From positions 1-64,000 of the forward strand of contig JAVVEA010000007.1 in NCBI GenBank assembly GCA_032250835.1: a stretch of DNA of 64,000 nt, given 5' to 3'. This DNA is from a bacterium (GTDB lineage: Bacteria > SAR324 > XYD2-FULL-50-16). The notes below the pieces were generated by a model, which was not told the DNA's origin, made no database searches, and saw only the letters and a list, made by a program, of their open reading frames with translations. The translations under genes and the position numbers were made by a program. This document shows positions 5,264-62,097 of this stretch, one piece after another (position 1 is the first letter of the stretch; the number at the start of each line of letters is the position of its first letter).

Positions 5264-6462
5264 TGGGGCCTCCGCCAATAGATAAAGTCCACTAAAGTCC
5301 CGGCAGCCAACTCGCTAAGGTCGGCGTCGAATTTAAAGAGCCCTTCGGAAAAGGCCAGACCGCTAAAGTCGCCACTGCCGCCTATCTGGACTTCCTCAAC
5401 CCAGGTTTGTCCGTCCTGTTGGACCAATCGGGCCGAAGTGTACTGCTCGCGCTGGTTACGCTTTTTGGCGGCCTTCAGCAGCGGCAGACGGATCACTGGG
5501 GGCAAAGGATCGGGGCGGCCAGACAAGGCCATGGCCAACGGCTCCACAAAGAGCTTAAAACAAACCTGCACCGAGACCGGGTTGCCGGGTAGGCCAAAGA
5601 CCCACTTTCCGTGACCGCGCCCAAACCAGATCGGTTTGCCGGGCTTTAAGCGCACCTTATGGAACACCTCTTCGATGCCCGATTCTTTTAAAATCTTGGG
5701 CACCAAGTCGAATTCGCCCATACTCACACCGCCGCTTAAAATCAAAATATCTGCGCCTTGCAAACCCCGGCGAACTTGGGACTTGAGGGCTTCTTCTTCG
5801 TCCGGGGCGATCCCCAGGGAGCTAACCGGCAAGCCCAACTGGGCGGCTTGGGCCAAGACCGCCGGGCTATTGCAATCGCGGATTTGATAAAACTCAGGGC
5901 TCGCCTCGGTGGGCACCAGTTCGGTTCCCGTGGAGATCACCACCAGCTTAGGGGGGCTGAAAACGTCCACCTCGGCTTTGCCGATGCTGGCCAGATAAGC
6001 AACCAACGAGGGAGTGACCGGGCGGCCGGGCTTAAAAAACTCAGCGCCCGCTTCGGCTTCGCTACCCTTAGGCACCCAGTTCTCGGCGGGCTGCGCGGCG
6101 CGCTTGAAGCGGATCATTTCGCCTTGGGCCTCGGTGTCTTCCACCGGAATCACGGCGTCCGCCCCTTCGGGTAGCGGGGCACCGGTCATCACCTGGATAC
6201 AGGTGCCGGGCTCCACGGCCTGTTCAGGGCGCACCCCGGCGGCGAGTTGACCGATCAGGTGCAGTTCACCGGGCTCGAGCAGGTCGGCTGCCTGCAAGGC
6301 ATAGCCGTCCATAGTCACCCGGTTAAAGGGGGGGAGGGGGCGGTCCGCCGCCAGCGTTTGGGCCAAGGTTAGGCCCAAGGCTTTCTGGATCGGGCGGTTT
6401 TCGGGCCCAAAGGGGCGGGCACTGGCCAATACGGCGGCCTGGGCCTCAGATACGCTGAACAT
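5260..6462 (-). CDS. moeA: Molybdopterin molybdenumtransferase MoeA
   Basis: PPFNRVTMDGYA, MTGAPLPEGADAV, STGTEL, SGGVSMG, LPGNPVS; SD AGGAG before ATG 6462. Confidence 0.95.
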   Translation of the reverse strand: MFSVSEAQAAVLASARPFGPENRPIQKALGLTLAQTLAADRPLPPFNRVTMDGYALQAADLLEPGELHLIGQLAAGVRPEQAVEPGTCIQVMTGAPLPEGADAVIPVEDTEAQGEMIRFKRAAQPAENWVPKGSEAEAGAEFFKPGRPVTPSLVAYLASIGKAEVDVFSPPKLVVISTGTELVPTEASPEFYQIRDCNSPAVLAQAAQLGLPVSSLGIAPDEEEALKSQVRRGLQGADILILSGGVSMGEFDLVPKILKESGIEEVFHKVRLKPGKPIWFGRGHGKWVFGLPGNPVSVQVCFKLFVEPLAMALSGRPDPLPPVIRLPLLKAAKKRNQREQYTSARLVQQDGQTWVEEVQIGGSGDFSGLAFSEGLFKFDADLSELAAGTLVDFIYWRRPQ

Positions 6463-6465
6463 GAT

Positions 6466-6558
6466 ACTCCTTTTCAATGTCGGAAGGCCCCGGCGTTTCC
6501 CCTGGAACCCTTTCGCCCTAAAGCCCTAGCTTGCGCCTTAGGCTCTTCGGATCGGAGT
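6466..6558 (-). promoter_or_regulatory. Moco/Tuco riboswitch-like leader RNA upstream of moeA-moaA
   Basis: Minus strand: ACTCC-GATCCGAAGAGCCTAAG-GCGCAAGC-TAGGGCTTTAGG-CGAA-AGGGTTCCAGGGGAAACGCCGGGGCCTTCCGACATTGAAAAGGAGT. P1 ACUCC/GGAGU overlaps the SD; CCUAAG, GNRA loops and GCCUYCCG..GAAAAGGAG are hallmarks of the Moco RNA motif. Confidence 0.8.
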
Positions 6559-6595
6559 CGTTGATTGATTCTAAAATACGCTTTCTAGCCTTGCT

Positions 6596-7981
6596 TTACA
6601 AGACTAGGTTTTTGGTGAACTCCGCCAACTGGTCTAAAGTGGCGCATTCGATCACTTGATCACAAAAGGGTTTATAATGCCGGATGCTGTTTGAGGAGCT
6701 ATACCAAAACTTTTCTTCTTCAGGGTTGAGCCAAAGGGTCCGCTCTACCTTTTCGGTCATCTTCTCAAAGGGCTCGGTCAGCGGGTTGTTAAAGTTATTT
6801 TGGCCGTCACCTAAGATCAACAGGGTGGTGTCTTTGGTCAGGGCATTACCATAGCTGTCCAAAAAGCTCTTGAAGCTGGAGCCATAATTACTGGGCTGGC
6901 CCATGCCGATGTGGTGGTCTTTGGTGGCCTTGATCAGTGCCTTTTCTAAGGGGTAGCGCTCAAAATAGCTACTGATCTCATAGGTATGGCGGATAAAAAC
7001 AAAGGTGCGGATCTTTGAAAACCGGTTTTGTAACCGGTAAAGCAACAGCACCATAAACTGGGCGGCATAAGAAACACTGCTGGAAATATCGCAGAGCGCC
7101 ACCACCTTGCCTTTCTTCTTGGCGGGCGTGCGGCGTTTGATGTGGAAGGGGACACCGCCGTAGCGCATGGAGTCGCGGATGGTGCTTTTGATGTCGATAT
7201 GCCCACGGGCCGCTTTTTTGCGTTGGGCGCTTAGGGCATCGTGTAGCTTCTGAGCGAGCTTCTCCACCTCTTCTTTGACCCTGTCGATCTCGCGTTGGGT
7301 CAGCTGGTTGAAGCTGATGGTGCTTAAGGTCCGCTTCTTTTCCCAGGGCATCACCTGACGCCGGTTGCGGGACTTTGACTTGGTCGAATCCAGCAGCATG
7401 GCCGCTTCTTCTAAGCGCTCGCGGATATATTCGCTGAGCTTCTCGCGCTTCTCGCGGTTCATGTTGAAGCTGCGGGCGCTAAAGTCTTCGGCCAGCTCGA
7501 TCAACACCCGCACCCGGTTGCGCAAGCGTTCTTCGTCGCGCTTCGAGGGGGTTTTGCTGTATTCTTTTAACTCATCGGTCACCTGAGCGGGAACATGGTC
7601 GGGCTCGATGGCCTCGATCCCCAACTTGTCCATCAAGCCCTGGGTATTGCCTTCGATGTAGTCGGCCAGAATATGGGTGACCGGGTCGCCCTCGCGACGC
7701 ATTTGGTCGGTAAATTCCTTTAAATTAATCTTAAAAATCTGGCTCTCGTCGGTCAGCTTGACGGGGTTTTGCTCGATGAAGACGCTGGTAAAAACCCGGT
7801 CAAAAGTGCCCTGATCGTTTTGGTCGATCACCAAGCTGCCTTGTAGCGCGGCGTAAAATTGGTCGCGATCTAAAAGGTCGATAAAGTCCAGGCTGCTGAT
7901 CGCGGTGTGCAGGCTGTTGGTGGGCACCATCATGCCCTCCTGCTTTAGGGCATAAGCGAATTCCTGGATCAGCGGGATCAT
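6596..7981 (-). CDS. VWA domain protein, CoxE-like
   Basis: IDIKSTIRDSMRYGGVP, MIDAS-like CDISSSV, LGDGQNN, WLNPE. Confidence 0.85.
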   Translation of the reverse strand: MIPLIQEFAYALKQEGMMVPTNSLHTAISSLDFIDLLDRDQFYAALQGSLVIDQNDQGTFDRVFTSVFIEQNPVKLTDESQIFKINLKEFTDQMRREGDPVTHILADYIEGNTQGLMDKLGIEAIEPDHVPAQVTDELKEYSKTPSKRDEERLRNRVRVLIELAEDFSARSFNMNREKREKLSEYIRERLEEAAMLLDSTKSKSRNRRQVMPWEKKRTLSTISFNQLTQREIDRVKEEVEKLAQKLHDALSAQRKKAARGHIDIKSTIRDSMRYGGVPFHIKRRTPAKKKGKVVALCDISSSVSYAAQFMVLLLYRLQNRFSKIRTFVFIRHTYEISSYFERYPLEKALIKATKDHHIGMGQPSNYGSSFKSFLDSYGNALTKDTTLLILGDGQNNFNNPLTEPFEKMTEKVERTLWLNPEEEKFWYSSSNSIRHYKPFCDQVIECATLDQLAEFTKNLVL

Positions 7982-8892
7982 GAGGCTAAGATGGTCTCAA
8001 CATTTTTTAAGACCTGCTCGGCGTCGCTCAGGTATTTAGTGATCACCCCGATGGTGGTCCTCAGTTCCGCTTCGGTCAGTTCCTTGGCTTGCAGGCTGAT
8101 TAGGGCTTGGGCCCAGTCGAGCGTTTCGGCGATGCTGGGCTTTTTCTTCACTTCCATCTCCCGGATTTGGCTGATCGCCGAGACCATCTTTTGGATCAAC
8201 TGCTCGTTGAGGTCCGGGAAGCGCCGCTTGACGATGCGTTCCTCCATCTCGCTGCTGGGAAAATCAATGTACAGGTGCAGACAGCGGCGCTTGAGCGCGT
8301 CGGAAAGATCGCGGGCGTTGTTAGAGGTTAAGAAAACCAAGGGCGGCACTTTAGCGGTCAAGGTGCCCAATTCGGGGATGGTGATCTGGAAGGTCGAGAG
8401 CACCTCAAGCAGGTAGGCCTCAAATTCCGGGTCCGATTTGTCGATCTCGTCGATCAACAACACGTTGGGCTTGCCCAAGGTGATCGCCTTGAGCAATGGA
8501 CGGGGCAACAAGAAGTGTTCGCTAAAAAACGCGTCTTCCACACTGATCACTTTCTTGACCGCCGAAGCCAAGTCGGCGGTGTCGCCCACCAAGTCGTGGA
8601 TCTTCTCTTTGAGCATCTGCGTGTAAAGCAGCTGCTTAGCGTACTCCCATTCGTAGATCGCCTTGGTCTCGTCTAACCCCTCGTAACATTGCAGATGGAT
8701 CAGTTCCACGTCCAAGGCTCGGGACATAGCCTTGGCCAACTCAGTCTTGCCCACCCCGGCGGGTCCTTCGACCAAAACGGGTCGTTGCATCTTCATCGCC
8801 AAAAAGACGATGGTGCTGATCTGGGTTGAGCTGATGTAGCCTTCGGTCCCGAGGATTTCGGAGACCTGCAAAACGTTTTGGAACTCTTTCAT
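7978..8892 (-). CDS. MoxR-family AAA+ ATPase, CoxD-like
   Basis: EGPAGVGKT Walker A, LQCYEGLD..KAIYEWEY.KQ, LLIDEIDK Walker B, LSDALKRRC. Confidence 0.9.
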   Translation of the reverse strand: MKEFQNVLQVSEILGTEGYISSTQISTIVFLAMKMQRPVLVEGPAGVGKTELAKAMSRALDVELIHLQCYEGLDETKAIYEWEYAKQLLYTQMLKEKIHDLVGDTADLASAVKKVISVEDAFFSEHFLLPRPLLKAITLGKPNVLLIDEIDKSDPEFEAYLLEVLSTFQITIPELGTLTAKVPPLVFLTSNNARDLSDALKRRCLHLYIDFPSSEMEERIVKRRFPDLNEQLIQKMVSAISQIREMEVKKKPSIAETLDWAQALISLQAKELTEAELRTTIGVITKYLSDAEQVLKNVETILAS

Positions 8893-57879: not shown

Positions 57880-58824
57880 ATGCAAGGTCCCCTGAAGATC
57901 ATCTCCGGTAGCTCCCACCGCGAATTTGCCGACGAAATTTGCCAGCTCATGTCCAAAGAGCCGAGCGAGATTGAGACGGTTACCTTTTCAAACGAAAACA
58001 TGTTGGTCCGCATCTTAGACAACGTCCGCGAGGCCGATGTATTTGTGGTCCAAACTAGCTGCCCACCGGTCCACGACCACTTGGTGGAAACCATGATTTT
58101 GTTGGACGCGCTGCGCCATAGTTCGGCGGCCCGCGTCACCCTAGTGGTTCCCTATCTGCCCTATGTTCGCAGCGATAAAAAGGACCAACCTAGGATCAGC
58201 ATCACCGCCAAGTTGATGGCGCGCCTGCTGCAAACGGCCGGGGCCAACCGCTTCTTGACCATGGAACTGCACAGCCCCCAGATTCAGGGTTTCTTTGACG
58301 TGCCGGTGGATCAACTGATGGCCACCGATGTGATCTGCGACTACTTCTTGGCCCAGAAGGACCTACAAAACTACGTGATCGTCGCCGCTGATGTCGGCGA
58401 GGCTAAGCACCTGGGCCGCTTTGCCAACAAGCTAAACCTGCCCATGGCGATCATCGACAAGCGCCGCCTGGGCAATAGCGATGAGGTAGTGCCCACCCAC
58501 CTGATTGGGGACGTGCGGGGCAAACGGGCCCTGATCATCGACGACGAAGTCGCCTCGGGCGGCACGCTGGTCAAAGCCGCCGAGTTCCTCAAGGAAAACG
58601 GTGCCCTCAGCACCACCGCCGCCATCGTGCACCCCGTCCTCTGCGGCAGCGCCATCGACAAGATCAATAATTCGAGCCTAGATGAGTTGGTGGTCACCAA
58701 CAGCATCCCGGTTTCCGAAAAGGCCTTAGCCTGCCCGAAGATCAAGGTCCTGTCCGTCGCCTCCCTCTTCGCCAAAGCGATCCAACGCATCCACAACGGA
58801 GACTCGATCAGCGTGCTTTTCTAA
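57880..58824 (+). CDS. prs: Ribose-phosphate pyrophosphokinase
   Basis: PYLPYVRSDKK, LHSPQIQGFF, IDKRR, IIDDEVASGGT. Confidence 0.95.
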   Translation: MQGPLKIISGSSHREFADEICQLMSKEPSEIETVTFSNENMLVRILDNVREADVFVVQTSCPPVHDHLVETMILLDALRHSSAARVTLVVPYLPYVRSDKKDQPRISITAKLMARLLQTAGANRFLTMELHSPQIQGFFDVPVDQLMATDVICDYFLAQKDLQNYVIVAADVGEAKHLGRFANKLNLPMAIIDKRRLGNSDEVVPTHLIGDVRGKRALIIDDEVASGGTLVKAAEFLKENGALSTTAAIVHPVLCGSAIDKINNSSLDELVVTNSIPVSEKALACPKIKVLSVASLFAKAIQRIHNGDSISVLF

Positions 58825-58913
58825 AAAGCCCTTGCAGGAGGCAACCGCCTCCTGCTGGCTGAACCAATTTTTGTAGCTGTCTATCCGGCATTCTTTCCCA
58901 CTTAAATGTTTAT

Positions 58914-60284
58914 ATGATTGAATGTAAAAAATACGAGGGCTCGTTTCGAGAACTAAGGAGTCATAAAGGCTTCAGATCCGATTACTTGTCTCCGAGTTCA
59001 GCCAAACTGCTGGACGAGTTTCTTTCGGATCAAGTTGGCTATATGGTGGTTGAATATCCCTATGTCGATGCAGATTTTCGGTCTTCATACTACAGAGATT
59101 TTTCAAAACGCCACAAACCAATCAGCCGCGATAGCTACCGGATCCATCTATTTTCCGGCGATTCAAAGGTCCCGTTCACAAATGACCAGTACCTTGGTTA
59201 CCTGACGCTTCGCCAAACGCCTAAGTATTCTATTGGACGCAGTTACCTCTCTCCGAAGGCGGTAAAGCACTCTGTCGGATACTGTATGTTGTCCACCTAT
59301 AAAGCCCACCTGCTAGGTAAAGAACTCGTCGTCCAAGCCTTTCCTTGGATGCAGCAGGATATCAATACCACACGTTGTGCACATATTGCTGCTTGGAGTA
59401 TTATGAGATACTTCAGTCGCAGGCAGCCGCAGTATTCAGACATTCCGCTTGCGGAAATGGCTAATTCTTTGGGCTCCCAACTGAGATCGGTTCCTTCTCA
59501 TGGCCTCACCCTGCAACAAATGGCGCAGTTGCTGAGCAGCGTCGGATTTTCGGTGCAAATCATGGTCCGACCGAAAGACGATCCAAAACCGAATCGATTT
59601 GAAACCAAGATTTTTCACTATATCGAATCAGGACTCCCGGTCATTGCATCCCTTAATAAAGAACACGCGGTGGCCTTGGTTGGACACGGAAACGTCAGCA
59701 GCGCAACAAAAGCAAACCTTCAAGGCATACAGGACTCATCAACCCTGCTTCCGTCACTACTCTGCTCAGACGATAATTTCCTGCCCTACCGGGAATTATT
59801 CCGCGAAAAAACGAATCACTCCCTGCCAAGCTTCCAAATCGAGCATATCGATGCTATTTTGATCCCGATGCACGAAAAAATGTACACTACCCCCGACGAG
59901 TTATTGGGGCTGCTACTGCCATCAGTCGAGAATCGCAAGCCACTAATCGACAAGACGCTTGTAAGGCGCGTATTTCTCTCCAGTTCTAAGGAACTAAAAC
60001 TGGCCACAGCTAAGGTAAAAGATAAAGTTTACAGGGATTATGTCTTTGGTTTAGCGTTACCGAAATTTGTTTGGGTTGTTGAGTACGCAAGCCCCGAGTG
60101 TTATGACAAACAGTTGGCTGAATACAGGTTGGTCATCGACTCCACCGCGACTGTCTATGACGAGGATGCAATTGTCTTCTTCCAGCAACCAGGTATGATT
60201 CTTGATTACTCAGAGGGCGAAAACGTCATTGACTTAAGAGCTCAACAGACACCTTTCTTGACAAACAATCTCATCAGAATATAA
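58914..60284 (+). CDS. Uncharacterised papain-fold (C39-like) cysteine peptidase/transglutaminase-like protein
   Basis: FPWMQQD...C155AHIAAW, GLT..QM..LL, YIESGLPVI...H251AVALVG, D286DN.LPY form a Gln-Cys-His-Asp arrangement; no signal peptide; AT-richer than flanks. Confidence 0.7.
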   Translation: MIECKKYEGSFRELRSHKGFRSDYLSPSSAKLLDEFLSDQVGYMVVEYPYVDADFRSSYYRDFSKRHKPISRDSYRIHLFSGDSKVPFTNDQYLGYLTLRQTPKYSIGRSYLSPKAVKHSVGYCMLSTYKAHLLGKELVVQAFPWMQQDINTTRCAHIAAWSIMRYFSRRQPQYSDIPLAEMANSLGSQLRSVPSHGLTLQQMAQLLSSVGFSVQIMVRPKDDPKPNRFETKIFHYIESGLPVIASLNKEHAVALVGHGNVSSATKANLQGIQDSSTLLPSLLCSDDNFLPYRELFREKTNHSLPSFQIEHIDAILIPMHEKMYTTPDELLGLLLPSVENRKPLIDKTLVRRVFLSSSKELKLATAKVKDKVYRDYVFGLALPKFVWVVEYASPECYDKQLAEYRLVIDSTATVYDEDAIVFFQQPGMILDYSEGENVIDLRAQQTPFLTNNLIRI

Positions 60285-60315
60285 TTTACCCATTAGCCCG
60301 AGAAAGCTTTAAGTT

Positions 60316-60480
60316 ATGAAAAATCTTCTTAAAATCAAGCGGACCGCTAGCAGCACTGCAGCCGAGTGGAAGCAGCAAGTCAATAAGTCCATTGCAGCTC
60401 ACTCTGACGCTTATCAGGTTGAAAACCAACGCCTTCGCGCTCAAGCCGTCGAATTTGCTGAAAAAGTGAAACTCGGTTGA
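60316..60480 (+). CDS. Small 54-aa helical protein (absent from the ORF track)
   Basis: ATG 60316 to TGA 60480: MKNLLKIKRTASSTAAEWKQQVNKSIAAHSDAYQVENQRLRAQAVEFAEKVKLG; 31 bp after the peptidase stop on the same strand. Confidence 0.6.
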   Translation: MKNLLKIKRTASSTAAEWKQQVNKSIAAHSDAYQVENQRLRAQAVEFAEKVKLG

Positions 60481-60637
60481 ATGCGATCCTCCCTCCGGTT
60501 TGGCCTTCTAAAACAGACAGCCCCCCCAATTCACAGCAAGATCTGAGTGCATTTCTGCCCTGATCGTCGAGGCCCATGCTGTGATTGCGAAGGTAGTTGT
60601 GTTGACTGATAAATCTCGAACTTTCTTCAAGCGCTAC

Positions 60638-60673
60638 AAGCCGCCTTCTCAACCGAGTGGGCGGCTTTTTTTT
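60638..60673 (+). terminator. Intrinsic terminator closing the peptidase/small ORF unit
   Basis: AAGCCGCC-loop-GGCGGCTT followed by a T run. Confidence 0.7.
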
Positions 60674-60927
60674 GTTTCTGGGGTTGATCTCGAGTGGCTG
60701 GATTTGGCCGAATTTGACCGGGCTGGGGCTTTAATTTGCCCTTTGGGTAGAATATACTTGCGTCGAAATAATGGGGATAGTGGGCGCTAGTGAAGAAATT
60801 AGTCAACGGTTTTAGCCACCTAATGGAAATCCACTCATCTAATTTAGACCTTGGTTTTTTGGGTTTCAATAGATATTGCGGTGGTCCCAAATTCAGGCTG
60901 AGAATCAAGCTAACTAGGTAAATCCAT

Positions 60928-62097
60928 ATGAAAATCTACAAATTCTATCCGCTGCTCTTGGGGTTATTGGCTTTGGCCCTGGTGGGCTGTAAAAAAGAGG
61001 AGGCGGCGCTTGATGCGACCAGCGACGCGGCAGATAACACGGTCTCTGAAGGCAGTACGACCAGCCCGATCCTGCTTTCCAACGGGCAAAGCCGAGATGG
61101 ATCGGTTAGTTCGGCAGACTATAGTTATTACCGCTTGGTGGTGACCGAATCGGGCAGCTACGATTTGGACTTAACCATCCCCGACGGCCAGACGCTGTCG
61201 GTCTATGGCTCGGATTTTCAAAATTTCAACTTTCTAGACGCCTTTTTGCTGCGGACCTGTAATCAAACCTCCTCCTGTAAGGTGATCCTCCCCAACCTCC
61301 CGGCCAACTACAACATCGACTTCATCATCCAATCCAACGAATCCGCATCCTTCACGATGACGTTGAGCAAGGGTTTTGGCCAAGGAACCATTGGGGATGG
61401 CTACCCAGTGGAACTGGGTCAAACCGTTTTGGCAGGGATTGACAATGGAACGATCAAAGCCAACCAATTCGCCGGGTCACTCTATCATTTCAAGACCGGG
61501 CCCGTTGGAGGCTCTTACCACCTTCTGGACCAAGCCCACATCGCCTTAAGCTGGGAGGTAATCAAATACCCGGAGTTTAGCTCCTTCTACTATGACGAGC
61601 ACCAGCCCAACACGGCAGTGAAAAGCCACGAAGCCATGTTAGAGCGTTTGGACGCTAGCACCGATTATTATCTTCTAGCCTATGCCGACAACCAACCCTC
61701 GGATCAATTCACCTTCACCCTGCAAAAAGCCTATGCAGAAGGCAGTTTGAGCTATCCTGTGGCGCTCACCTTAGACTCCACCCATGACGCAACCTTTGAT
61801 GCGTCCTTGGTTTCTTCAGCCTACTATTCCTTCACCGCCACCGCGAGCAGCCACACCATCACTACCGTAAATAGTGCCGATCGGTTTAAGGCGACGTTGT
61901 ACGATACCAATGCGGGCTACAACTCTGCCCACGGGTTTGCGGTGACTTCCTACTATTCCTGCGCATTAGCCTACAATCTAAGTTGCACCGCCCCCACGAG
62001 CTTCAGCGGGTTGACCGTAGGCCGAAGCTATGTGATCCATCTCACCCACGAATACGCTCCCAGCAGCCCTCTGGCCTACCAAATCTTAGTTCAGTAG
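60928..62097 (+). CDS. Lipoprotein with three repeated beta-sandwich (PPC-like) domains
   Basis: Lipobox LVGC; repeat starts EGSTTSPILL / QGTIGDGYPVEL / EGSLSYPVAL each followed by YY.F/L and Y.I/L.L strands. Confidence 0.65.
   Translation: MKIYKFYPLLLGLLALALVGCKKEEAALDATSDAADNTVSEGSTTSPILLSNGQSRDGSVSSADYSYYRLVVTESGSYDLDLTIPDGQTLSVYGSDFQNFNFLDAFLLRTCNQTSSCKVILPNLPANYNIDFIIQSNESASFTMTLSKGFGQGTIGDGYPVELGQTVLAGIDNGTIKANQFAGSLYHFKTGPVGGSYHLLDQAHIALSWEVIKYPEFSSFYYDEHQPNTAVKSHEAMLERLDASTDYYLLAYADNQPSDQFTFTLQKAYAEGSLSYPVALTLDSTHDATFDASLVSSAYYSFTATASSHTITTVNSADRFKATLYDTNAGYNSAHGFAVTSYYSCALAYNLSCTAPTSFSGLTVGRSYVIHLTHEYAPSSPLAYQILVQ

Follow-up and report, generated by a model that had tools for sequence, protein, structure and literature searches.

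We report here a two-gene cassette in a 64,000-nucleotide stretch of DNA from a SAR324 bacterium (GenBank assembly GCA_032250835.1, contig JAVVEA010000007.1, positions 1 to 64,000 of the forward strand; this whole stretch is called the window). The cassette encodes a cytoplasmic cysteine peptidase of papain fold, 456 amino acids (aa) long, and directly behind it a small helical protein of 54 aa. The peptidase belongs to a large unnamed family with N- and C-terminal domains of no recognized fold and with a dedicated partner that, in the predicted complex, occupies the active site. A cytoplasmic papain-fold protease coupled genetically to a "plug" protein offers a concrete, testable mechanism.

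The cassette and its insertion site

An original prediction, made from the letters of the window and its open reading frames (ORFs), had placed both genes here, and both are present as described (Table 1). It had also called the block AT-richer, which holds: the G+C content is 0.43 to 0.50 over positions 58800 to 60900, against 0.53 to 0.64 in the flanking dnaJ, nadK and prs genes on one side and flgE on the other. The two genes sit as an insert between prs and flgE. On the prs side the block is bounded by a hairpin with a weak U-tract at its 3′ end. On the other side the strong terminator expected after the small gene was recovered as a hairpin followed by U8; it was found by folding against 200 shuffled sequences and was not flagged by a simple terminator scan. 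Between the stop codon of the small ORF and this terminator lie 157 nucleotides (60481 to 60637) that are apparently non-coding. The 148-nucleotide stretch 60485 to 60632 has an unremarkable structure (z +0.9), and Rfam gave no match over positions 58700 to 61000.

Table 1. Coordinates, strand and basis of the features of the cassette
Feature	Position	Strand	Basis or remark
Upstream boundary: G+C-rich hairpin on the prs side	58827-58860	+	−25.1 kcal/mol; z −5.7; 0/200 shuffles as stable
Gene for 456-aa cytoplasmic three-domain cysteine peptidase	58914-60284 (stop included)	+	ORF, homologs, model
N-terminal domain, residues 1-120	58914-59273	+	Outside the predicted small-protein interface
Papain-fold catalytic domain, residues ~121-323	59274-59882	+	VIA-align matches, invariant residues
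Catalytic codon Q148	59355-59357	+	Codon reading
Catalytic codon C155	59376-59378	+	Codon reading
Catalytic codon H251	59664-59666	+	Codon reading
Catalytic codon D287	59772-59774	+	Codon reading
C-terminal domain, residues ~324-456	59883-60281	+	Predicted docking platform for the strand and helix of the small protein
Sigma-70-type promoter match, TTGACA-16-TATAAT	60258-60285	+	12/12 consensus positions; within the 3′ end of the peptidase gene, ~30 nt 5′ of the small ORF
Gene for 54-aa helical partner	60316-60480 (stop included)	+	31-bp gap after the peptidase ORF; protein ends ..VKLG
Downstream boundary: intrinsic terminator (stem 60638-60667 plus U8)	60638-60675	+	−20.7 kcal/mol; z −4.4; 0/200 shuffles as stable

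The gene order dnaJ-nadK-prs is retained in five relatives. In one of these (G001), prs and flgE face each other directly in convergent orientation; in G003 and the others, different genes occupy this site. The syntenic relative G007 shows the order dnaJ-nadK-prs-peptidase-small ORF-flgE. A homolog of the peptidase is found in 5 of 18 genomes of the same family and in none of 22 genomes of other families, and the source genome has a single copy. The cassette is an insertion relative to the genomes of its kin.

A scan for sigma-70-type promoters returned 4 sites where 3.0 ± 1.8 were expected, so that the number of sites is not enriched. The match ahead of the small gene is consistent with a separate, stronger expression of the partner, a function suggested by its sequence.

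A 389-aa lipoprotein gene (60928 to 62097) lies between the cassette and flgE. Its lipobox, ..LVGC, bears out the earlier description of a lipoprotein gene downstream; it has no Pfam family. The gene is missing at the corresponding place in G007 and for this reason looks like a separate insertion.

Peptidase fold and conservation of the small gene

The peptidase was modeled with AlphaFold as three domains (predicted local distance difference test [pLDDT] 92, predicted template modeling score [pTM] 0.91). Inspection of the sequence shows no hydrophobic N-terminal segment, in agreement with the expected lack of a signal peptide. The regions on either side of the catalytic core, which had been listed as of unknown fold, are folded domains at this whole-protein pLDDT. 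For the N-terminal domain, which reaches a pLDDT of 92.9 when modeled alone, the earlier description stands to the extent that there is no convincing relative in the PDB (VIA-align best Z 4.4; Foldseek best E 0.18, with scattered low-probability GNAT-like rows). The motif most strongly conserved in the family (E47, P49, Y50, D52, D54, R56, Y60, R76 and H78) lies in this domain, and the C-terminal domain is conserved at R352, P383, F385, W387, D409, T411, N452 and L453.

Structure searches of the ESM Atlas with these two domains returned unnamed hypothetical clusters only (template modeling scores of 0.83 to 0.87 for the C-terminal domain). The N-terminal domain (residues 1 to 120, positions 58914 to 59273) occurs there in unnamed proteins of 212 to 423 aa and the C-terminal domain (residues 322 to 456, positions 59877 to 60281) in unnamed proteins of 299 to 484 aa; since these proteins have other lengths, both may be mobile domains reused elsewhere.

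In an alignment of 32 homologs the invariant residues are R76, G95, P144, Q148, C155, P194, E238, S239, G240, P242, H251, G257, D287, R352 and D409. The Gln-Cys-His-Asp layout of papain enzymes that had been proposed is thereby upheld for Q148, C155 and H251, and the acid is moved from D286 to D287. For the catalytic domain, VIA-align ranks first the peptidase LahT150 with its leader peptide (6mpz_A; Z 15.9, root mean square deviation 2.4, 135 residues aligned), followed by PCAT1 (Z 14.4), the C39-like peptidase 3erv (Z 14.1), ComA (Z 13.9), staphopain C (Z 13.8), prostaphopain B (Z 13.7), Mug105 of the ZUFSP family (7oiy_B; Z 13.6, 164 aligned), UfSP2 (3oqc_B; Z 13.5, 168 aligned) and phytochelatin synthase (2btw; Z 13.4). 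VIA-align was needed here, as Foldseek with the whole peptidase model gave no match at E ≤ 1e-3.

The phytochelatin synthase match, together with the placement of BtrH_N close to C39 in a classification of papain-like enzymes (PMC10318531), bears on a reading of the peptidase as a small-molecule acyl or gamma-glutamyl transferase or amidase, with the partner as a carrier or scaffold that holds a group on its C-terminus. We regard this as very unlikely: biosynthetic genes are not conserved nearby, the C-terminal residue of the partner varies (see below), and the genomic context is mobile or defense-like, not metabolic.

At the level of sequence, neither the 456-aa nor the 54-aa protein gave anything at E ≤ 1 in Pfam, NCBIfam or PADLOC, and a PDB sequence search with the peptidase gave no match at E ≤ 10. 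The family is nevertheless large. It comprises 84 word-indexed homologs of 263 to 610 aa, and a profile search of 1.84 billion representatives returned 5,932 clusters (50% identity) at E ≤ 1e-3, 4,721 at 1e-10 and 3,046 at 1e-30, the best 150 of which are nearly all full-length. It spans many phyla. A precomputed match to PF13529 (Peptidase_C39_2) exists for 7 of the 84 homologs and for the window protein there is none, so the family is best regarded as a distant neighbor of that model. One homolog record at NCBI is labeled "papain-like cysteine protease family protein." No curated model (Pfam, NCBIfam or PADLOC), name or literature description of the family or of the peptidase-partner pair was found, the supplementary tables of two preprints on Bub operons lying outside the scope of this search.

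The conservation of the small gene was assessed in 79 genome loci, collected with a 13-row alignment, and 37 metagenome loci. Counts refer to clusters at 90% identity, of which 54 belong to the close clade of the window peptidase and 49 are evaluable (full ORF and at least 250 bp downstream). A match to a small-protein hidden Markov model (HMM) lies directly downstream on the same strand in 42 of these 49 clusters, within an ORF of 55 to 75 aa, and in many of the pairs the two genes share 4 bp. Six of the remaining seven clusters are from Clostridia, and in five of them the small ORF stands one gene further on, behind a gene for about 187 to 205 aa. Conversely, all 77 matches to the small-protein HMM among 22,362 ORFs adjoin a peptidase gene, five of them a deleted one. 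The intervening gene of the clostridial form (Clostridia/Lachnospiraceae; L045:6291-6854, L047:6331-6894, L052:6326-6901, L042:2895-3479 and L040:6411-7028) has no Pfam match, and its C-terminal part reads by eye like a winged helix.

In the alignments the partners have a variable N-terminus, a short strand-like segment, a long helix and a short hydrophobic tail, and this tail is the feature conserved across the family. Whether a downstream ORF of 45 to 65 aa with a conserved C-terminal motif recurs had been posed as a check; the ORF does recur, and the conserved element is the hydrophobic tail and not the terminal glycine to which attention had been drawn. The last residue is variously G, R, S, K, A, Y, D, T, I or F, and a conserved terminal glycine as the site of conjugation was rejected as a candidate on this ground. 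A minority of partners (L019, L022/L036/L084, L041, L051 and L105) have 3 to 9 residues beyond the common C-terminal end. In 8 of 15 pairs of small ORFs with unsaturated synonymous divergence (dS), the ratio of nonsynonymous to synonymous substitution (dN/dS) is 0.12 to 0.33; in the other seven, where dS is saturated, the proportion of nonsynonymous differences (pN) is well below that of synonymous ones (pS). Database copies of the partner are called "hypothetical protein" only and have no Pfam domain, and genes of 54 to 75 aa fall under the 60-aa default of the ORF listing. These sequence comparisons mark the small ORF as a real, conserved gene under purifying selection.

The window copy itself is a divergent member. 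It shares 31% identity over 36 residues with a 63-aa ORF of G007 (BLASTP E 2e-6), and the two, which correspond in position, are reciprocal best matches (phmmer E 0.003 to 0.006 among 17,557 ORFs). An initial HMM of the small proteins, from which the copies of the window and G007 were left out, failed to retrieve the window ORF at E ≤ 10. When closer relatives were added, again without these two copies, the window ORF scored E 3.3 among 22,362 ORFs, about 1.5e-4 per sequence, and ranked at the top of the 1,489 stop-to-stop ORFs of the window. With hhalign, the window and G007 pair aligned with the rest of the family from end to end, up to the C-terminus (E 4e-4, probability 34%). The closest intermediates, L094 and L095, whose peptidases are 42% identical, share a Trp, an E-R-x-R-x-A helix segment and the hydrophobic tail. 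The weak HMM score could be taken to mean that the 54-aa ORF arose by chance or is decaying, and that only the peptidase functions in this genome. Its reciprocal match in G007, its family-like position, length and helix-plus-tail architecture aligned through to the family C-terminus, its own consensus promoter and terminator, and the high-confidence complex predicted with the window sequence (below) leave this reading highly improbable.

Natural variants bear on the roles of both genes. In L113 to L118 (for example, L115:3923-4644), residues ~126 to 331 of the peptidase are deleted and the small ORF is intact, at 96% to 98% identity to the intact L016; in L036 (2500-3184), residues ~186 to 421 are deleted and the small ORF is again intact. 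These are two independent losses of the catalytic domain with the partner kept, and they speak for the plug reading favored below. A further locus, from a Desulfonatronospira metagenome-assembled genome, has an in-frame TGA exactly at the codon of the catalytic Cys (..ISR-TGA-AQ..; L015:2819-2821, the same as L099:3809-3811). Apart from this codon the frame has no stop; it is 67% identical to L016, and SelA is encoded in the host genome. A hairpin like a selenocysteine insertion sequence is weak (z −0.9) and has no Rfam support. This locus is a candidate for either a selenocysteine papain-fold protease or a targeted nonsense knockout, and under either reading C155 would be the key residue.

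Predicted complex and possible mechanisms

The pair was modeled as a complex, as had been suggested, from two family alignments. The interface score ipSAE was 0.77, 0.77 and 0.78 in three runs, and the best of three controls reached 0.01. Of 157 solved complexes, 116 attain this mark, as do 2 of 215 mismatched pairs; these counts apply only roughly, since the alignments used for the pair were self-made. The three runs share at least 95% of their contacts, the partner pLDDT is at least 81, and the interface has about 130 contacts. Residues 5 to 16 of the partner are predicted to add a strand against residues 430 to 438 of the C-terminal domain, and its helix to pack on the peptidase helix 327 to 339, against residues 329 to 342 and 372 to 379; the interface stretches of the C-terminal domain are 329 to 342, 372 to 379 and 414 to 440. 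Partner residues 47 to 54 are predicted to touch residues 154 to 156, the conserved loop 196 to 204 and residues 249 to 252, including C155 and H251. The interface lies mostly on a domain without a solved relative, which makes recall of a known complex by the predictor unlikely. The model supports binding of the two proteins with the partner tail in the active-site cleft. Together with the conserved adjacency of the genes, it supports the earlier view of the small protein as a partner dedicated to this enzyme. A hydrophobic tail would also suit an S2-type pocket of papain enzymes.

The original prediction offered three roles for the partner: substrate, inhibitor or conjugated tag. Inhibitor fits best, given where the predicted tail lies on the enzyme, and the conjugated tag is weakened because the C-terminal residue varies. 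We therefore favor, at a probability of roughly 45%, a partner that acts as a pseudo-substrate or product-mimic plug and keeps a cytoplasmic enzyme resembling ubiquitin-like (Ubl) proteases inactive, as part of a toxin-antitoxin-like or defense switch. The peptidase would use C155 as nucleophile with H251 and D287, and Q148 at the oxyanion. The partner would add a strand to the C-terminal domain through its N-terminal segment, pack its long helix on helix 327 to 339 and insert its last eight residues into the cleft, where they would contact C155 and H251 much as a bound product or a pseudo-substrate does. In this way it would keep the protease shut, in the manner of a propeptide or inhibitor provided in trans. 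If the separately promoted partner were lost or displaced, which proteolysis, transcription shut-off or a phage factor could trigger, the protease would be released and could cleave proteins of the cell or of a phage, with an outcome of the toxin-antitoxin or abortive-infection type.

The predicted pose resembles that of a leader held by a C39 peptidase or a modifier tail held by a Ubl protease, with the difference that the partner chain goes no further than the catalytic site. The peptidase shares the Q-C-H-D order with the C39 domains of LahT150 (6mpz), PCAT1 and ComA, and its predicted complex shares with them a helical peptide that extends to the catalytic Cys with its C-terminus. The peptidase is, however, neither fused to nor beside an ABC exporter, and the window protein has no match to the C39 profile PF03412. 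The partner stops where cleavage would be expected, has neither a cargo nor a Gly-Gly, and is predicted to dock its helix on an extra C-terminal domain that C39 domains do not have, one of two extra domains of unknown fold in the peptidase. A C39 leader peptidase for export was rejected as a candidate, there being no exporter; its absence beside the enzyme, as first noted, extends from the cassette itself to 150 neighbor proteins, among which none recurs.

UfSP1, UfSP2 and the ZUFSP/Mug105 enzymes, which recognize a C-terminal tail, are similar in fold over peptidase residues 109 to 321. They differ in that the partner is not a beta-grasp protein and in that Ubl, E1 and E2 genes occur only beside relatives and not in the window. 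The UfSP arrangement is given as Cys...Asp-Pro-His (PMC10318531), whereas the order in the cassette peptidase is C...H...D. On the model, the catalytic domain would work like a tail-reading protease of the C39/UfSP type, yet it lacks the profile match, the exporter and the Gly-Gly that mark C39.

UfSP processes UFM1 and C39 peptidases process leaders. By analogy, the small protein might be the substrate of the enzyme or a Pup-like modifier without a beta-grasp fold, from which the peptidase trims a C-terminal extension or which it removes from targets. The best fold matches are indeed tail- and leader-processing enzymes, the partner tail is predicted at the catalytic Cys and His, a minority of partners carry C-terminal extensions in the manner of Ubl precursors, and relatives of the peptidase adjoin Ubl-E2-E1 operons. 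Most partners, though, have no extension, which leaves nothing to cleave and no peptide bond for an acyl-enzyme. Their last residue varies, a ligase or an E1 neither accompanies the pair consistently nor occurs in the source genome, and the linked operons of relatives already encode a separate Multi_ubiq Ubl. Pup has a conserved C-terminal GGQ or GGE and PafA/Dop neighbors, whereas partner C-termini vary and no neighbors of the PafA/Dop type occur among the 150 proteins scanned. We judge a substrate or modifier unlikely, though it is the most credible of the other roles for the partner considered here.

A further alternative starts from the interface. The pVIc peptide activates the adenovirus protease, and the partner could similarly be a cofactor or adaptor on which the enzyme depends structurally, one that would complete the sheet of the C-terminal domain and activate or target the protease instead of inhibiting it. 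The strand addition at 430 to 438 and the helix on 329 to 342, within about 130 contacts, would suit such a role, and the 4-bp overlap of many pairs implies translational coupling, which suggests stoichiometric co-production. A tail in contact with C155 and H251 would instead block the cleft, catalytic-domain deletions keep the small ORF, and a distant clade of the peptidase with ORFs of 534 to 575 aa works without such a partner. A cofactor is accordingly rather improbable, and more so than a substrate or modifier.

The plug reading has precedents in gene order. In the staphopain-staphostatin (scpAB, sspBC) and streptopain-Spi pairs, a papain-like protease gene is likewise followed by a small gene, the product of which is here predicted to lie in the cleft. 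Staphopain and streptopain are secreted as zymogens, and the co-transcribed cytoplasmic inhibitor guards against premature activation; staphostatins are beta-barrels of about 110 aa. The cassette protease has no signal peptide, its partner is a 54-aa helix with a tail, and there is no sequence similarity between the systems. A secreted protease with a staphostatin-like guard was rejected as a candidate because of the missing signal peptide.

Type II toxin-antitoxin modules of the higBA or mqsRA order are likewise compact pairs of patchy distribution in which a small partner is predicted to bind the enzyme. Common to both are also adjacent, co-oriented genes (here in 42 of 49 clusters), mutual binding (here predicted by the model), a promoter match of its own ahead of the small gene and a degraded "toxin" beside an intact partner gene. 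Differences are that the pair matches no known toxin-antitoxin or PADLOC family, that some intact peptidases have no partner and that toxicity is here only conjectured.

Several points weigh against the plug reading. Inhibition, toxicity and the tail-in-cleft pose all derive from the model, and the promoter is a consensus match only. The window ORF matches the family HMM weakly (E 3.3; hhalign probability 34%). Two of 49 intact peptidases (L037 and L032) and the whole Bub-linked clade of 534- to 575-aa ORFs lack a detectable small ORF, from which it follows that the peptidase is not always dangerous alone. A substrate that is processed would account for the 3- to 9-residue extensions of some partners no less well than an inhibitor would. 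No DNA-binding domain is recognizable in the partner by Pfam, NCBIfam or PADLOC, unlike in typical type II antitoxins, which use one for autoregulation, although short proteins can escape such models. PADLOC has no match for the pair, phage records hold no member of the family, and plasmids hold only 3 distant matches of 23% to 25% identity.

Neighboring genes and Bub/6E-type operons

The 150 neighbor proteins scanned at 41 loci reveal neither a third gene that is conserved nor a recurring transporter. They include many helix-turn-helix (HTH)/Xre regulators, parts of toxin-antitoxin systems, integrases, a relaxase, a transposase, McrBC, SNase, SMODS, M78 peptidases and SNF2/PLD helicases. This variable and often mobile or defense-type context, together with the insertion relative to kin, agrees with the mobile, self-contained module that had been envisaged.

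The recurrent link of the peptidase family to operons of the Bub/6E type went beyond what the original prediction had expected. With local HMMs, a JAB/ThiF-type E1 gene and an E2-like gene, mostly with a Multi_ubiq Ubl gene, were found within 5 kb of 10 of the 54 close-clade clusters (L024 to L027, L033, L034, L037, L120, L121 and L127). An HTH gene or an M78 and HTH pair usually stands between this operon and the peptidase gene. In the distant clade, whose 534- to 575-aa lengths are those of stop-to-stop ORFs, 13 of 15 clusters are directly convergent with a Ubl-E2-E1 operon. Pfam confirms ThiF and Multi_ubiq, as well as Prok-E2_E in L033, L120 and L127 and Prok-JAB in L120; in the other Ubl-linked loci, E2 is below threshold or unrecognized by Pfam. 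The linked Ubl-E2-E1 operons are of the Bub/6E type. The association of this peptidase family with Bub-type operons is previously unreported, and a papain-like gene is not mentioned in the text of two Bub preprints, their supplementary tables being outside the scope. In the distant-clade loci (L066, L069, L071, L072, L076, L078 to L080, L082 and L088 to L091; around positions 6440 to 8550 in most), the stop codons of the peptidase and E1 genes overlap by 4 bp, and an HTH gene of 126 to 129 aa lies beyond. For the majority of the genomes of this clade, the search for DUF6527 (BubE) gave no match.

All Bub operons are said to encode the DUF6527 protease BubE, a Ser-His protease of a different fold, and the targets of the Bub pathway are described as not identified in the discussion of the same paper (PMC11601596). 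A whole-genome search did not find DUF6527 in 10 of 15 genomes with linked operons, the completeness of which is unreported, so that absence is unproven; the domain lies inside the operon in 2 of 15 (L033 and L034) and elsewhere or at an unresolved place in 3 of 15. Because DUF6527 was not found in those 10 genomes, the papain-like peptidase may stand in for BubE. In the Bub-linked relatives it is probably a tail-recognizing or deconjugating protease. Bub-type operons without BubE beside this family suggest a missing deconjugating or effector protease for a defense pathway.

The window copy differs from these relatives. There is no E1, E2 or Ubl HMM match in the window, and Bub genes, which in the relatives are adjacent Multi_ubiq, E2-like and JAB/ThiF-E1 genes, occur neither nearby nor in the genome. 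Prok-E2_E was not found in the source genome (97% complete), and the window copy is for that reason taken to be a solo pair. A broader and more speculative proposal, which we hold with little confidence, joins the two forms: the pair would be a new module of the bacterial ubiquitin-like world, in which a UfSP/C39-like tail-reading protease replaces BubE and is gated by a helical, non-beta-grasp protein of about 60 aa that mimics, or is, the modifier tail, with the solo cassette serving as a phage- or stress-triggered protease switch. If true, prokaryotic immunity would gain a new class of protease regulator and perhaps also a novel kind of small protein tag.

Much longer, weakly similar homologs of the peptidase, with open frames of 623 to 625 aa, are present in two genomes from the family of the source (L004/L011 in G017:C14 and L005/L012 in G015:C113), and the long homolog of L012 has an E1-like gene about 2 kb downstream.

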